A stretch of DNA of 15,885 nucleotides from a virus (taxonomy: Duplodnaviria; Heunggongvirae; Uroviricota; Caudoviricetes). The stretch lies in IMG/VR virus record IMGVR_UViG_2534681991_000026; one strand, given 5' to 3'. Every line of letters begins with the position of its first letter. Positions within the stretch are counted from its first letter, which is position 1. Shown here piece by piece: positions 1 through 14,487 of the stretch. The position numbers were made by a program, and so were the translations under genes. Below the pieces are notes generated by a model. The model had not been told where the DNA came from. It saw only the letters and a list, made by a program, of their open reading frames with translations, and did no database searches.

Positions 1-165
1 ATGGCAAAGCCGATCATCACGCTCAATGGCCTAAAAATCGTCATTATGTTGGGAATGCTGGTCATTATTCTCTGCGGTATCCGTTTTGCCGCCGAGATCA
101 TCGTGCCGTTTATTCTCGCATTATTTATTGCTGTTATATATAACTTATTTCACTTAACGCATTGA
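1..165 (+). pseudogene. tqsA: 5' fragment of an AI-2 exporter TqsA/YdgG-like inner-membrane protein gene; frame ends after 54 codons
   Basis: ATG at position 1; translation [46 protein letters not shown] matches the N-terminus of enterobacterial TqsA as I recall it, then diverges (YNLFHLTH) and stops at 163-165. Hydrophobic TM-like segment. Identification is from memory, not a search. Confidence 0.5.
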
Positions 166-9289: not shown

Positions 9290-9530
9290 TGCACCTCCTC
9301 TACCTCTCTACCTAATCATCTTTCAGGTCAGTAATGGCGCGGCTTTCAGATGGGTAGAGGGCTTTCGTGGCCCTCTACCCATCATCTACCCGCCCCTCAC
9401 AAACAACCTTAATCATGGTGGAGGGGGTAGAGGGCTTTTATTTGCCTTCTACCAGCCCCTCTACCCACTTATCATATTGAATAATGTATATTTATTTTCT
9501 TTAGGTAGAAGAGGTAGAGGGCTTTTGTCT
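9290..9530. repeat. Iteron array flanking an AT-rich stretch; putative replication origin
   Basis: At least 8 copies of the core GGTAGAG(GGC)/(GCC)CTCTACC in both orientations (about 9298, 9306, 9354, 9373, 9386, 9426, 9459, 9505, 9514), including a perfect 11-bp inverted pair GGGTAGAGGGC(9352-9362)/GCCCTCTACCC(9370-9380); AT-rich 9467-9503. Directly 3' of the primase gene. Confidence 0.6.
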
Positions 9531-12264: not shown

Positions 12265-12469
12265 ATCTTAACTCCACTGAACTTACGTATTTACACGGGT
12301 TTCCTTTTACCTGTCGCACACGGTAGGAATCGTTTTTAATCACTTCCGCTATTTGCCCAAACTTTTTTACCGCTGTACGGCGGCTCTTGTAGCGGTAAGT
12401 GTTTATCTCCCTTCTGCTCATTACCGCTTCATTGTGATATCTGGTTATCACTATCAGCACTTCAAACAT
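12251..12469 (-). CDS. Hypothetical protein (about 72 aa)
   Basis: Start taken at ATG 12469 (MFEVLIVITRYHNEAVMSRREIN...), overlapping the upstream icd-like stop as ATGTTTGA; alternative starts at 12499 or 12421. Confidence 0.4.
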   Translation of the reverse strand: MFEVLIVITRYHNEAVMSRREINTYRYKSRRTAVKKFGQIAEVIKNDSYRVRQVKGNPCKYVSSVELRYVAE

Positions 12470-12632
12470 GACGCACCCCCTGACGAATACGGGCGACAAA
12501 AATCAGATGTGCGCGCGGCAACTGGGCGCGGGCTTCGCGTTCAGTGGCTGCGGTAACGGTGTAAATATCAATGCTGCTGTGGTGGCACTGCATAAAGCGC
12601 CAGACAAAGTAAGGGCGTGCGGATACAGCCAT
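12462..12632 (-). CDS. Icd-like small protein, paralog 2 (56 aa)
   Basis: MAVSARPYFVWRFMQ...TEREARAQLPRAHLIFVARIRQG; GGGAG SD about 8 nt upstream of ATG 12632; paralogous to 12919-13116. Resembles the small Icd-like proteins annotated in P4-like prophages (from memory). An in-frame upstream extension to 12926 exists with no stop. Confidence 0.45.
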   Translation of the reverse strand: MAVSARPYFVWRFMQCHHSSIDIYTVTAATEREARAQLPRAHLIFVARIRQGVRHV

Positions 12633-12918
12633 GTGAAAGGCTCCCAATTTAATGTTAAGGGGTCTCACCACTACGCTGCTAAACGGGGTGGCGAGACGTA
12701 ACAGGGTTAGCAGACTGGCAAATTGGGAAACCAGCGAGCGCAAAGGCTCCCCCGTTACGCCCCGCCATAATGCGGGTATGGGTAGGTTTACGGACACAAA
12801 AAAACCGCTTATCGGATATGGGCGGCTGTCCGCCAATTTATTCAGGCTGCTAAACCCGGTCGCCATGTGGGCGACGGGGGAAGCATACAGCCCCGTGATA
12901 ATTTTTTGCAAGCGGTTT

Positions 12919-13116
12919 TTACGCATGATGTGACCCCTGACGAATACGAGCGGCAAATACAGCAACACAACCTGACGGGCAACGGCTACGCGCTTCGCGT
13001 TCCGTCCAGGCGGTTACGTGGATGATTTGAGATTCTCCGGCACTCAGGGCCAGAAAACGCCACACAAAGGCCGTTTGTGTGTGTACAAGGTGTGGTATAT
13101 GATTTACGGCAACCAT
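12919..13116 (-). CDS. Icd-like small protein, paralog 1 (65 aa)
   Basis: MVAVNHIPHLVHTQTAFVWRFLALSAGESQIIHVTAWTEREARSRCPSGCVAVFAARIRQG; AGGAG SD 5-6 nt upstream of ATG 13116; first gene of the leftward early operon. Confidence 0.5.
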   Translation of the reverse strand: MVAVNHIPHLVHTQTAFVWRFLALSAGESQIIHVTAWTEREARSRCPSGCVAVFAARIRQGSHHA

Positions 13117-13206
13117 AACGGCTCCTAGTTTACGTTGTTGGTTAGAAGCCCCGTTACTGCTCCTACAGTGCGGGGCTTTGCTCTTTGTATTTCAACAATC
13201 CTTTTG

Positions 13207-13239
13207 GTGTGTTTCATGTTATGGACACATGAAACACAC
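13207..13239. promoter_or_regulatory. Operator-like perfect inverted repeat in the divergent control region
   Basis: GTGTGTTTCATG(13207-13218)-N9-CATGAAACACAC(13228-13239); a third half-site GAAACACAC at 13276-13284 abuts a -10-like TATACT (13270-13275) upstream of the plus-strand gene at 13306. Confidence 0.55.
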
Positions 13240-13305
13240 GTCAAGGCTTTTTGTATTTCTTTTTTTGTGTATACTGAAACACACCGATGATTAGGAGTTT
13301 CAGAA

Positions 13306-13611
13306 ATGGCAACGGCTAACAAAAACGCAAAATCACAACTGACAACCGTCAGAGTCCCACTAGATGTTATGCAAGGGATGGAATCCGTTAAGCTGGACGG
13401 CGAAAGCAATGCCGGATTTATCGTAACCGCCATGCGCGGTGAAATCGCCCGCCGCCAGGCAGAAGGAAGCGGAGAAAATCCCCTTGTGTCTTCACTGGAT
13501 GCTTTGGCTAAGGTCGAACAAATTGGCATCAAGGCAGCGGAGGATATCGGGCAGCTTGTCACCGTTGCACGCGAAGAACTCCAGCGTCGCAAGACCCAAG
13601 AATCAGAATAA
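13306..13611 (+). CDS. Putative small DNA-binding regulator (101 aa), possibly ribbon-helix-helix
   Basis: ATG 13306 with AGGAG SD 9 nt upstream and a -10-like element; only clearly supported plus-strand gene inside the element; TTVRVPLDVMQGMESV suggests a beta-strand then helix as in RHH regulators (weak). Divergent from the leftward operon. Confidence 0.5.
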   Translation: MATANKNAKSQLTTVRVPLDVMQGMESVKLDGESNAGFIVTAMRGEIARRQAEGSGENPLVSSLDALAKVEQIGIKAAEDIGQLVTVAREELQRRKTQESE

Positions 13612-13940
13612 TCACTATCAGCGCCGTGGCGTGAGGTACTACGGCGCATTGCTTTACAGGCGCACACAATGACCAACGAAGAATCAACCGAAAAAACATC
13701 ACCTGCACGAAAAAGACGACGCAGAAAGAAAGAGCATGAATCAGAACGATTCGCGCCGTGTTCTTTTGCCCTTGAGAAGTACCTTAAAGAATACTCATCA
13801 AAGGAGAGAGCTTCGCAGTTATGGCAACGCACTGAACCAGACTGATTGCATTGCACACCAGCCTGATAGCGGCTATCATCCCCGTGCTTATGTTTGGGAT
13901 CACACACACAAACTGCGCAGCGGGTTATCTGTTCAGAAAG

Positions 13941-13968
13941 GCGGCTCCATTTCGGGGCCGCTTTTTTT
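13941..13968 (+). terminator. Strong rho-independent terminator of the rightward transcript
   Basis: GCGGCTCC(13941-13948)/GGGGCCGC(13954-13961) stem (one G-U pair), 5-nt loop, followed by T7 (13962-13968). Confidence 0.7.
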
Positions 13969-14114
13969 ATGCCTGAAAAACTCCAATTTTGTTGTTTTTC
14001 AGTTTCACCAGGGCGAACGAATCCCTGCCCACATTCGGGCGTATATTCAATCTTCATGGTTATAGCTCTGTGTTCAGATGATTGATGTGTGGCGGCTGCG
14101 TGCCGCCAGCGTGA

Positions 14115-14303: not shown

Positions 14304-14453
14304 TATTGCCCCCTTTCGTTTCTTAAAGAGTCATCAGGTGTCTTATTGTGTCGTATTGTTCCCGCTAGAGTGATGAATGGCAAATGTTGGTGGCGCATGG
14401 TTTACAGAAAGAGGAATAATCAGGATAAAATCATTTAAATTCATGTTAATACA

Positions 14454-14487
14454 AAGGCATAAAATCTCGTTTTATGCCTTTTTTCTC
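14454..14487. terminator. Terminator-like hairpin between int and alpA (possibly bidirectional)
   Basis: AAGGCATAAAA(14454-14464)/TTTTATGCCTT(14470-14480), loop TCTCG; T-run TTTTCTC on plus and U-rich flank on minus. Confidence 0.5.

Follow-up and report, generated by a model that had tools for sequence, protein, structure and literature searches.

The DNA analysed here, a stretch of 15,885 nt referred to below as the window, is identical to an island inserted at tqsA in E. coli, for which the RefSeq annotation lists int, alpA, primase, capsid, portal, protease and terminase genes. Phage-inducible chromosomal islands that form capsids (cf-PICIs) are defined by int, alpA and primase genes together with their own capsid, protease, portal, connector and terminase genes, lack tail and lysis genes, are about 15 kb long and use a dedicated att site (bioRxiv 10.1101/2022.09.08.507074); by its gene content the window is an E. 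coli cf-PICI satellite. The region considered here, which is proposed to be the control core of the satellite, lies between alpA and the first gene of the leftward operon, an icd-like gene. Matches to it are present in 1699 of 5426 complete E. coli genomes (about one third), at up to six related places per genome, and the position of its plus-strand gene cassette between alpA and icd is strictly kept across relatives.

The features of the region are listed in Table 1. Every sequence feature described in the original prediction is present where it had been placed, including the leftward operon start at 13116, which is the start of an icd-like gene, and the earlier interpretation as a whole is partly supported. 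Absent from that prediction were a 310-codon minus-strand ORF (14057–13125) that spans the cassette, a C4 antisense RNA module, and the assignment, from its profile match, of the first leftward gene to the Icd/Kil-like proteins.

Table 1. Features of the alpA–icd region and of the adjoining leftward operon (window coordinates)
Feature	Position	Strand	Basis or remark
alpA, 62 aa	14115–14303	−	Pfam Phage_AlpA, E 1e-16; upstream of bridging ORF
eta-like bridging ORF, 310 codons	13125–14057	−	Begins just below alpA, stops 8 nt short of the icd-like ATG
Rho-independent terminator of plus-strand cassette	13937–13972	+	Fold
Small protein gene, 58 aa	13669–13845	+	phrog_21027, E 2e-12; 24 homologues
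Intercistronic hairpin, 9-bp stem, 9-nt loop	13621–13647	+	Inside 57-nt in-frame spacer; conserved
ylcI-like gene, 101 aa	13306–13611	+	NCBIfam YlcI_YnfO_N, phrog_6522; purifying selection in frame
YlcI domains	Residues ~9–52; 59–100		Predicted N-terminal ribbon-helix-helix; long C-terminal helix
P_R −10, TATACT	13270–13275	+	TATAAT or TATATT in relatives; good −35 absent
O2, imperfect pair	13252–13284		Putative operator flanking P_R −10; TGTATTTCT 13252–13260 and TGAAACACAC 13275–13284
O1, perfect palindrome, two TGAAACACAC half-sites	13207–13239		Putative operator; −99 and −76 from ylcI ATG
P_L, putative leftward early promoter	13216–13244	−	Consensus scan; embedded in O1
Leader element of leftward transcript	13139–13178	−	GC stem-loop 13146–13178, then motif TCTAACCA 13146–13139
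icd-like gene no. 1, 65 aa	12919–13116	−	NCBIfam phage_ICD_like, 64.7 bits; first leftward gene
Second eta/kil-like ORF	12462–12968	−	Contains C4 module; second Icd-like domain at C-terminus
C4 target sites a1b1	12839–12888		c4-a1b1 45.5 bits, just under gathering score 46.7
isrK-like terminator	12798–12875		Rfam isrK, 37.6 bits
C4 antisense RNA	12684–12772		Within second eta/kil-like ORF; Rfam RF01695, 74 bits

A single convincing plus-strand gene had been predicted, and the pattern of substitutions supports two, ylcI and the 58-codon ORF. By its profile match the product of the first is a member of the YlcI/YnfO family (NCBIfam NF041551, 63.1 bits against a cut-off of 30, residues 9–50 covering the whole 42-position model), which is also its name in RefSeq, and the gene has a good Shine–Dalgarno sequence (SD; AGGAG, 13293–13297). 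In ylcI, changes that are synonymous on the plus strand and nonsynonymous on the minus strand occur at 0.87 of the rate of doubly synonymous changes, those that are nonsynonymous on the plus and synonymous on the minus strand at 0.51 of that rate, a pattern that shows purifying selection in the plus frame. Between E. coli and Xenorhabdus the plus-strand frame is 74 % identical and the antisense frame 61 %.

The small ORF shows the same kind of difference between plus- and minus-strand substitutions, and its synonymous/nonsynonymous ratio is 0.87, against 0.21–0.29 for the other plus frames. On this evidence the ORF is a real small protein gene, so that of the two earlier options the substitutions support the small protein, and a regulatory RNA may still be encoded; a search of 13120–13980 against Rfam 15 with permissive thresholds found no family (best E 0.09 or worse, far below gathering scores). 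Its SD, previously described as unclear, is a weak AGG in this island and improves to AGGA in relatives. The 58-aa protein has a basic, disordered N-terminus (ARKRRRRKK) and a conserved helical core (EHESERFAPCxFALExxLKEY), with a helix at residues 29–55 in the AlphaFold2 (AF2) model. The hairpin in the spacer between the two genes folds as predicted (−18.2 kcal/mol), and since its z-score is only −1.3 it stands out for the conservation of its sequence rather than for its stability; the sequence is kept even where the upstream ribbon-helix-helix (RHH) gene is of a different type.

The terminator that had been placed at the end of the cassette is strong in the plus orientation (−22.4 kcal/mol, z −4.5, U7 tail), whereas the minus-strand fold (−14.6 kcal/mol) has an A–C mismatch and no U-run, and it should thus work in one orientation, that of the plus strand. 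Very probably this is where transcription of the cassette stops; at the corresponding position two relatives, L025 and L026, carry another terminator. Three other candidates in this part of the region were set aside. An independent small RNA running from a promoter-like sequence (13852–13879) to the terminator has a fold z-score of −2.1 that is mostly due to the terminator, and the segment is not conserved in L025–L028. The 109-aa ORF annotated by PGAP/RefSeq at 13736–14065 has a poor synonymous/nonsynonymous ratio and no codon periodicity, and crosses the terminator. A 12-nt repeat, ACACACACAAAC, that flanks the cassette was not retained as an inversion or mobility signal because its right-hand copy is degenerate in relatives.

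The leftward transcript would begin with the leader element, which was found in all 19 loci compared, with compensatory pairs at two positions and a near-invariant TCTAACCA motif that is unique in the window. No similarity of the element to P4 was found, and a boxA-like sequence beside its hairpin (TGCTCTTTG) is not conserved in relatives. The first gene belongs to the same family as P4 kil and P1 icd, and the C-terminus of P4 Kil shows the matching pattern; the PHROG label 'transcriptional repressor' for this family is regarded as a legacy label, consistent with the old annotation of a P4 'cI' ORF. With an antisense RNA of the C4/CI family preceded by its target sites, the leftward operon, on its Rfam matches, carries a C4 antisense-RNA immunity module of the P4/P1 type. 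The genetic switch that had been envisaged is not of the two-regulator, lambda type, as the first opposing gene is Icd-like and not a second regulator.

That YlcI looks like an RHH protein of the Arc/Mnt type rests on weak profile matches. An hhalign comparison with Mnt and Arc is weak (E 1e-3, probability 21 %) and places the β-strand, the helix and the G-x-S turn in the correct register, the turn being G-E-S in YlcI. Of 34 family members, 24 match the RHH antitoxin family PSK_trans_fac, weakly and below the cut-off, two match Pfam Arc, and weak matches to HicB, another family of RHH antitoxins, were also seen. The AF2 model of the monomer has helices at residues 19–28, 35–52 and 59–100, a pattern that fits an RHH domain followed by a long helix, without a formed β-strand and with a low-confidence N-terminus. 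A Foldseek search of the PDB with this model gave no significant match. A marginal helix-hairpin-helix-like match of the C-terminal helix in a profile search of PDB sequences (Hef, E 0.022) was not relied upon. By analogy with P22 Mnt, the C-terminal helix suggests oligomerisation.

The inverted repeat is exact as predicted (GTGTGTTTCATG, 13207–13218, and CATGAAACACAC, 13228–13239) and its arms can be lengthened to 13 bp without a mismatch, leaving a spacer of 7 bp, and to 27 nt with 81 % complementarity. In the 15.9-kb window there are exactly three copies of the 10-mer TGAAACACAC, each within the 78 bp from 13207 to 13284. Chance alone would give about 1.1 hits when up to one mismatch is allowed. 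The third copy, already noted as a half-site at the TATACT, abuts that hexamer and is now assigned to the imperfect second operator, O2. The four half-sites lie at about −99, −76, −54 and −31 with respect to the ylcI ATG, at a spacing of 22–23 bp or about two helical turns, those over the P_R −10 being in direct and inverted orientation. The sigma-70-like P_L (−35 TTGACG, 13244–13239; 17-nt spacer; −10 TAACAT, 13221–13216), from which transcription would start near 13209, can also be read by eye at the same positions in relatives with different half-sites, and is a putative positional analogue of P4 PLE. P_R is missing from the list of scanned promoters because its −35 is poor.

Comparison of 23 related loci from about eight genera revealed that the positions of the half-sites are fixed and that their sequence is lineage-specific, with both arms of O1 changed in concert. 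The predicted β-strand of YlcI includes QLTTV (residues 11–15). Per 10 bases, half-sites of one locus differed by 1.5 mismatches on average, those of loci sharing a β-strand by 1.3 and those of loci whose β-strands differ by 5.3, figures that in part reflect shared descent, as regulator and operators are adjacent and inherited together. The comparison shows that the half-site sequence changes together with the predicted DNA-reading strand of YlcI. This, with the two-turn spacing of the half-sites, lends indirect support to an RHH dimer whose two-stranded antiparallel sheet would read the repeated sites in the major groove. Given the family match, the RHH-like profile and this co-variation, it is very probable that the 101-aa protein is a regulator that binds DNA sequence-specifically, and the palindrome most likely serves a small DNA-binding repressor as its operator. 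The arrangement supports O1 as the strongest operator, on the leftward promoter, and O2 as a weaker putative operator on the promoter of ylcI itself. DNA binding, repression and promoter activity are all read from the sequence.

The whole plus-strand cassette, together with O1 and O2, lies antisense within the bridging ORF. Here the ORF begins at an ATG with a weak SD, 57 nt below the alpA stop and after a GC hairpin, and its TAG stop overlaps the SD of the icd-like gene. The corresponding frame is open in all 26 relatives surveyed (181–698 codons; about eight genera, many of the loci being related by descent), whereas neither of the remaining antisense frames exceeds 90 codons, and in at least 16 of the 26 it ends in frame with an Icd-like domain. 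At one Serratia locus (L023) the ORF, which has such a domain at its end, starts within an overlap with the stop of alpA. Some relatives carry Phage_ASH ORFs at this position. Within ylcI, NNT codons before CAN, which would close the antisense frame, were found in none of 40 contexts against a T3 background of 34 % (about 5e-8, treating contexts as independent); in other genes of the island, read in the matching phase, stops occur at about 3.2 % per codon and the avoidance is absent. The substitution data, together with this avoidance, show that the openness of the antisense frame is under selection and that the encoded sequence is not.

The frame might nonetheless be kept for a functional protein, an N-terminally extended Icd or Eta or a Bro-network protein, with both strands coding or with ylcI as a shadow ORF. 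The open frame itself fits such a protein, PGAP annotates minus-strand CDSs or pseudogenes in relatives (e.g. the 247-aa WP_001304194.1 from an O157 strain, and entries named 'Icd-like, missing C-terminus'), and P4 Eta is treated as a Bro-network protein in a secondary account (PMC10111431). However, the antisense amino acids are almost unconstrained, minus-strand nonsynonymous changes reaching 0.87 (ylcI) and 0.71 (small ORF) of the doubly synonymous rate, and codon periodicity is absent where no plus-strand gene overlaps. The 310-aa product, rich in Ser, Cys and Arg, found no Pfam, NCBIfam or PHROG family apart from one chance-level match and no PADLOC match, and its N-terminal parts are not homologous between genera. 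As ylcI moreover has its own HMM family and the better conserved frame, we consider a functional minus-strand protein improbable.

Alternatively, the open frame could be a functionless by-product of composition or descent, leaving the repressor and operators as the only real part. YlcI contains no Tyr and mostly no His, which lowers the probability of antisense stops, ylcI of the K-12 prophage DLP12 is also stop-free within the gene, and many of the loci share ancestry. Against this, the open frame of DLP12 reaches only 25 nt beyond the gene on its upstream side and about 50 nt on its downstream side, whereas at the 26 loci openness runs through non-homologous intergenic and downstream sequence and ends at, or in frame with, the icd-like gene; nor would a by-product account for the missing NNT-CAN pairs, given that such avoidance is not seen elsewhere in the island. 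We give this explanation little chance of being correct.

Doubts may also be raised about what the regulator does. YlcI could bind its sites but serve chiefly in immunity between satellites or against the helper, or in activation, instead of being the island's own maintenance repressor. The diversified specificities and the several related places in one E. coli genome would suit such a role, as would the YlcI/YnfO homologues of lambdoid prophages, which adjoin terminase genes. The operators, which lie over the P_L −35 and −10 and over the P_R −10, have instead the classical geometry of repression, and tblastn found no relative of YlcI in 50,697 phage records, making this role an unlikely one. 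In gene order the cassette, where a small protein gene comes after that of an RHH protein, also resembles a type II toxin–antitoxin or addiction-like module; it has a palindrome (O2) over its own promoter and the weak antitoxin-family matches noted above, and could be self-contained, without control of the leftward operon. But the strongest operator is on the leftward promoter and not on P_R, the small ORF is missing from many ylcI loci (e.g. L023 and L008) and elsewhere is found beside short RHH proteins of unrelated sequence and without the C-terminal helix, a structured 57-nt spacer separates the genes, the small ORF matched neither a toxin nor any entry of Pfam or PADLOC, and the cassette strictly keeps its place between alpA and icd, all of which makes an addiction module very improbable. 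Finally, the concerted change of both arms is what the stem of an attenuator or processing hairpin in a read-through transcript would show, but the further direct and inverted half-sites 22–23 bp apart over the P_R −10, loops of 13–17 nt with non-conserved sequence that contain the P_L −10, the lack of a U-run after the repeat and the match between half-site and β-strand of the adjacent RHH protein leave an RNA element in place of a protein operator hardly credible.

The preferred reading, a YlcI repressor with O1 and O2 nested in a translated bridging ORF, has partial parallels in several known systems. Gene order matches that of the P4 left-operon region (PLL, vis, eta/kil, CI RNA, alpha primase). 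In both, an AlpA/Vis-type regulator gene adjoins a long ORF whose start lies upstream of an internal early promoter and whose end falls within a 65-aa Kil/Icd-like protein or shortly before it, and a C4/CI antisense RNA with a1b1/seqA-like targets is followed by primase. No homology of the bridging ORF to P4 Eta (Bro-network/Phage_ASH domain) was detected with Pfam, NCBIfam or PHROG. P4 eta has no antisense genes, PLE is constitutive and there is no protein repressor, whereas the ORF here is longer, lacks conserved protein sequence and hosts a complete antisense cassette, and the internal promoter is overlaid by a palindromic putative operator. The island also has an additional icd-like gene ahead of its C4 module, and most ylcI-bearing relatives (17 of 20 loci scanned, at gathering score) are without C4.

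The proposed divergent small RHH-like repressor resembles that of P22 immI, where Mnt, a small RHH repressor with an oligomerising C-terminal helix, is transcribed divergently (Pmnt/Pant) from an operon that it represses, its operator lies on the target promoter, and the sar antisense RNA acts in the region that encodes Mnt and Arc. YlcI aligns in register with both proteins, though with the marginal similarity given above; there are two operators with four half-sites 22–23 bp apart, the cassette is nested in an antisense ORF, and the operon under control has icd-like and replication genes, not ant, at its start. Judged by Rfam matches, the C4 antisense RNA and a1b1 targets, and with them the Icd-like protein, recall P1/P7 immI (c4 RNA, icd, ant), in which control is by translation-coupled, Rho-dependent polarity. 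P1 immI is not known to have a divergent protein repressor or an upstream bridging ORF, and the elements found here belong to a satellite replication operon. A divergent repressor next to int that controls a satellite replication and packaging operon is known from the SaPI Stl/Str system of Gram-positive PICIs (see also PMC6695447), but Stl is a large HTH protein derepressed by binding helper proteins, whereas the protein here is RHH-like and nested antisense in an ORF that would be translated.

Together, the Icd/Kil-like first gene, the C4 module and the nested cassette assign the region to a scheme like that of P4, in which read-through is driven from the side of alpA. AlpA, by its Pfam match a probable regulator of the activator/excisionase type, is named in the literature on Gram-negative PICIs as their helper-induced master activator, and a repressor has not been reported there. 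We propose that the plus-strand cassette (P_R, ylcI, hairpin, small ORF and terminator) encodes an RHH repressor that would bind the four half-sites about two helical turns apart. As O1 lies over P_L and O2 over P_R, the leftward icd-like/C4/replication operon would be held down in the quiescent island and ylcI would be autoregulated, and the lineage-specific half-sites would represent immunity specificities. The bridging ORF would be the analogue of P4 eta, whose translation from the upstream promoter prevents immunity-specific termination according to a secondary summary (PMC10111431); both its translation and its anti-polarity role we infer from this analogy. A helper phage would switch on transcription from the alpA side, ribosomes would translate through the bridging ORF and so protect the read-through transcript from Rho/C4-dependent premature termination, and RNA polymerase would be carried past the repressed P_L into icd and the replication genes, the converging transcription interfering with ylcI expression and with operator occupancy. 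If P_L must supply C4 RNA as it does in P4, full repression by YlcI would be counter-productive. Taken as a whole, the combination of RHH repressor cassette, O1/O2 and translated eta-like ORF is in our judgement slightly favoured to be correct.

The region bears on how Gram-negative phage-inducible islands are silenced and how a helper phage wakes them. It supplies a concrete candidate repressor, a conserved and specificity-diversified RHH-like protein with mapped putative operators on an early promoter, and islands carrying this candidate occur in other Enterobacterales as well. If confirmed, it would give a function to the uncharacterised YlcI/YnfO family, which includes two y-genes of E. 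coli K-12. For annotation, RefSeq is inconsistent in this region, with genes called now on the plus strand and now on the minus strand, and the 109-aa call is probably wrong. The bridging ORF is an unusually clean case of a frame whose openness, and not its sequence, is selected opposite two real genes, and it bears on how the coupling of transcription and translation shapes the architecture of mobile elements. More tentatively, and with the odds against it, YlcI/YnfO proteins may be a broad and still diversifying group of RHH master repressors of Gram-negative PICIs and cf-PICIs at large, their genes, promoters and operators lying antisense within a translated spacer that is kept only for the passage of ribosomes. 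Such a collision-type switch, if real, would let helper-induced transcription and translation from the alpA side at once bypass a repressed promoter, escape Rho/C4 termination and silence the repressor head-on, and would be built from a fully nested antiparallel gene pair.

A chromosomal island 100 % identical to the window is present in several Shiga-toxin-type E. coli strains, inserted at tqsA according to RefSeq. The RefSeq annotation places on one strand int, an AlpA-family regulator, two Icd-like genes, DUF4222, primase, SSB and PerC, together with the major capsid, prohead protease, portal, head-closure and connector proteins, HNH, and the small and large terminase; it includes no tail or lysis genes. 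This gene content matches the definition of a capsid-forming PICI (phage-inducible island) in bioRxiv 10.1101/2022.09.08.507074. For Gram-negative PICIs, published accounts name AlpA, an activator induced by the helper, as the master regulator and report no repressor. Two further repeats were noted in the island. Inverted and repeated GGGTAGAGGG / CCCTCTACCC motifs directly 3' of the primase gene (9336-9469) are probably replication-origin iterons, and the stretch between int and alpA, on the upstream side of alpA, has a perfect 12-bp inverted repeat, AAAGGCATAAAA-N5-TTTTATGCCTTT (14453-14481), which may be a regulatory site or a terminator serving the alpA promoter region.

The original prediction had read the region between the leftward operon and ylcI as a genetic switch. 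The elements described all lie at the positions given, which confirms the observation; the interpretation holds in part and was substantially extended. The inverted repeat is present as claimed, with arms that are perfect to 13 bp and reach 27 nt with mismatches, and the 10-mer TGAAACACAC occurs in three exact copies in 15.9 kb, all inside 78 bp. Comparison of the 125-bp upstream regions of 23 ylcI-type genes showed a common layout, namely four half-sites at approximately -99, -76, -54 and -31 from the ATG with a spacing of 22-23 bp. The upstream pair corresponds to O1, which lies over the putative leftward promoter P_L, and the downstream pair to O2, which brackets a conserved -10 (TATACT, TATAAT or TATATT) of the putative rightward promoter P_R.

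Features of the control region and its surroundings
Feature	Coordinates	Strand	Details
Second Icd-like ORF	12462-12968		Just downstream
P1/P4-type immunity module	12684-12888	minus	C4 74 bits; a1b1 45.5 bits, just under gathering score; isrK-like terminator
Terminator-like hairpin	13061-13081		Inside icd-like gene no. 1
ACACACACAAAC, left copy	13073-13084	minus	5' arm of the terminator-like hairpin
Bridging ORF	14057-13125	minus	310 codons; start 57 nt below alpA stop; TAG overlaps icd-like SD
Leader stem-loop, then near-invariant TCTAACCA	13139-13178	minus	Between putative P_L start and icd-like SD
O1	13207-13239		Perfect pair, GTGTGTTTCATG-N9-CATGAAACACAC
Putative P_L, sigma-70-like	13244-13216	minus	TTGACG-17-TAACAT; inside O1
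O2	13252-13284		Imperfect; TGTATTTCT at 13252-13260, TGAAACACAC at 13275-13284
ylcI	13306-13611	plus	101 aa
Hairpin	13621-13647		
Small ORF	13669-13845	plus	58 codons
ACACACACAAAC, right copy	13902-13913	plus	Degenerate in several relatives

The half-site differs by lineage (TGAAACACAC, TGATACACAC, TGAATCACAC, TGTCTTACAC, TGAATCGCAC and others), the copies at any one locus vary in concert, and the -35 and -10 of P_L are readable at the same positions in lineages with other half-sites. Where the beta-strand of the downstream protein is the same, so is the half-site, even between genera (E. coli, Xenorhabdus and Photorhabdus; E. coli and Yersinia). Mean mismatches per 10 bases were 1.5 among copies at one locus, 1.3 across loci whose beta-strands are identical and 5.3 where the strands differ, a contrast that is inflated by linkage. 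A repressor and operator that co-evolve would nevertheless be expected to leave such a pattern, with three or four dispersed copies changing in concert while their positions over two promoters stay fixed.

The 101-aa protein matches NCBIfam YlcI_YnfO_N at 63 bits (cut-off 30) and also phrog_6522; no description of a function for YlcI or YnfO was found in the literature searched. Homologues occur in Escherichia, Salmonella, Citrobacter, Klebsiella, Enterobacter, Yersinia, Serratia, Xenorhabdus, Photorhabdus and Edwardsiella, and Pseudomonas also yielded a locus. The alignment consists of a variable N-terminal arm, a strand-like KSQLTTVRVP, a helix and a G-E-S turn, followed by a second helix with an RRQ end and a conserved C-terminal segment. 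In some relatives, including the O157 cf-PICI, the ylcI position has only a protein of ribbon-helix-helix (RHH) size, 57-63 aa. The family aligns in register with P22 Mnt and Arc (hhalign), though the match is weak, AF2 predicts helices at residues 19-28, 35-52 and 59-100, and Foldseek with this model returned no significant match. That YlcI is an RHH domain with an oligomerising helix, as in Mnt, is thus a well-supported inference rather than a demonstrated fold. Residues 60-90 (LDALAKVEQIGIKAAEDI, 13483-13575) also match, marginally (E 0.022), the helix-hairpin-helix motif of Hef, pattern L..V.GIG.K.A..I, on which reading the C-terminal helix need not serve oligomerisation alone. One E. coli island (L003, 1016-2267) carries tandem cassettes, YlcI with a 75-aa ORF and then a short RHH with a 67-aa ORF, both having palindromes of their own, and where the 57-63-aa RHH replaces the 101-aa protein in the O157 cf-PICI type (L006, 952-1374; L007, 948-1352) the palindromes are of the GGTAATTACC type.

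The hairpin, the 58-codon ORF and the terminator predicted beyond ylcI are all real; the terminator is a strong one for plus-strand transcripts (-22.4 kcal/mol, z -4.5, U7) and a weak one in the minus direction. The 3' part had been taken as either a small protein or a regulatory RNA, and the substitution pattern favours the protein: in nine distinct sequences the synonymous/nonsynonymous ratio was 0.87 in the small-ORF frame versus 0.21-0.29 in the other two plus frames, including that of a 109-aa ORF annotated in RefSeq, and synonymous first-position Arg changes (CGA/AGA) were seen. We conclude that the small ORF encodes a protein. The annotated 109-aa hypothetical protein (13736-14065, plus strand) runs through the terminator, has no coding signal and is probably a miscall. 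Homologues of 57-70 aa in E. coli and Shigella share the core EHESERFAPCxFALExxLKEY and have variable, sometimes frame-shifted, tails; an exhaustive profile search found nine cluster representatives only, and AF2 predicts a basic disordered N-terminus and a single helix. Many ylcI loci lack the small ORF, and it is also found 3' of unrelated short RHH genes, always with the same conserved 57-nt hairpin spacer between.

The bridging ORF, a minus-strand frame, encloses in antisense the two plus-strand genes, with both of which it shares its third codon position, together with the pair of operators, the two promoters and the terminator. RefSeq annotations of other strains place minus-strand CDSs or pseudogenes over ylcI, sometimes in its place. 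Across roughly eight genera, all 26 loci keep this frame open, for 181-698 codons, against a maximum of 90 in either of the remaining antisense frames. In at least 16 of them it continues in-frame into the Icd-like domain, and in a Serratia island it begins with an ATG that overlaps the stop codon of alpA. In ylcI, codons before His or Gln never end in T (40 distinct contexts; T elsewhere 34 %), which would give an antisense TGA, whereas ten other island genes used as a control have approximately 3.2 % stops per codon in the same phase and T before CAN at 34 %. The antisense frame in K-12 DLP12 closes just outside ylcI. Changes nonsynonymous on the minus strand only accumulate almost as fast as doubly synonymous ones (ratio 0.87 for ylcI and 0.71 for the small ORF), those nonsynonymous on the plus strand only are depressed (0.51 and 0.45), and there is no codon periodicity in the bridging ORF outside the gene overlap. 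Because stops are avoided with near-free minus-strand amino acid change and no periodicity, we conclude from these comparisons that the openness of the frame is selected and the encoded sequence is not.

Several other properties of the frame were observed. alpA and the bridging ORF are in one reading frame here, with one TAA and 19 sense codons between them, and a GC-rich hairpin lacking a U-run (GGCGGCTGCGTGCCGCC, 14091-14107) lies 7 nt past the alpA stop codon. ylcI and the small ORF likewise share a frame (13609-13668; one TAA and 19 stop-free codons, 57 nt, with the hairpin inside), a relation kept in every relative checked, including one with different spacing (L024), and this may be a simple consequence of the antisense-frame constraint. 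The same cassette in a PICI with a truncated integrase in E. coli Nissle 1917 (L031, 7174-7479 and flanks) has a 36-bp insertion by which the upstream portion of the bridging ORF acquires an in-frame stop, a single example of lost openness, in a decayed element. In Xenorhabdus (L008, 3313-3892), the ORF spans approximately 580 nt without a plus-strand ORF, and tandem DNA repeats there, translated SLRGLVRL and GSPI(T/I)SGWL, may be binding sites.

Phage P4 shares the order of the island, with vis (AlpA family) followed by eta, a long ORF overlapping the end of vis that contains seqA/a1b1, CI/C4 and the C-terminal 65-aa Icd-like kil. According to the summary of Forti et al. 1999 in PMC10111431, eta contains a constitutive promoter whose transcript terminates via CI-seqA pairing. 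The whole of eta is translated only when transcription comes from the late promoter upstream, in translational coupling with the alpA homologue, and this translation prevents termination. The bridging ORF fits the P4 logic and would take it further upstream, though here there is no conserved protein sequence and an antisense repressor cassette lies inside. The C4 antisense RNA, its a1b1 targets and the isrK-like terminator (Rfam) all fall inside the second Icd-like ORF, which is marked frameshifted in RefSeq; there are therefore tandem icd-like units, with C4 control on the second only. At gathering score, C4/isrK had no match in 17 of the 20 ylcI loci scanned, and hence the RHH protein may be the sole brake on P_L in most relatives. 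In the island studied here, repression by YlcI would have to leave room for the C4 synthesis that is needed. The leader stem-loop and TCTAACCA were found in 19 of 19 loci across genera with any operator type, with some compensatory pairs; they resemble the 3' part of C4 (stem-loop and CUAACC) in polarity but not in complementarity. Two copies of the 12-mer ACACACACAAAC, in inverted orientation, flank the entire plus-strand cassette, against a chance expectation of 0.07.

Repressor-operator modules are of a known kind, as is P4-type read-through control; the searchable literature appears to contain no description of the two combined in a nested antiparallel arrangement, with an RHH family that is uncharacterised, in Gram-negative PICIs. 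In the quiescent island, YlcI oligomers would occupy O1 and then O2, repressing P_L, and with it the icd-like and replication genes, and limiting their own synthesis, and the plus-strand transcript would end at the one-strand terminator, short of alpA. On induction, helper-triggered transcription from the alpA side would be translated through the bridging ORF, avoiding Rho- and C4-dependent termination and reading past the operators into icd and the replication genes, and head-on transcription would lower ylcI expression.
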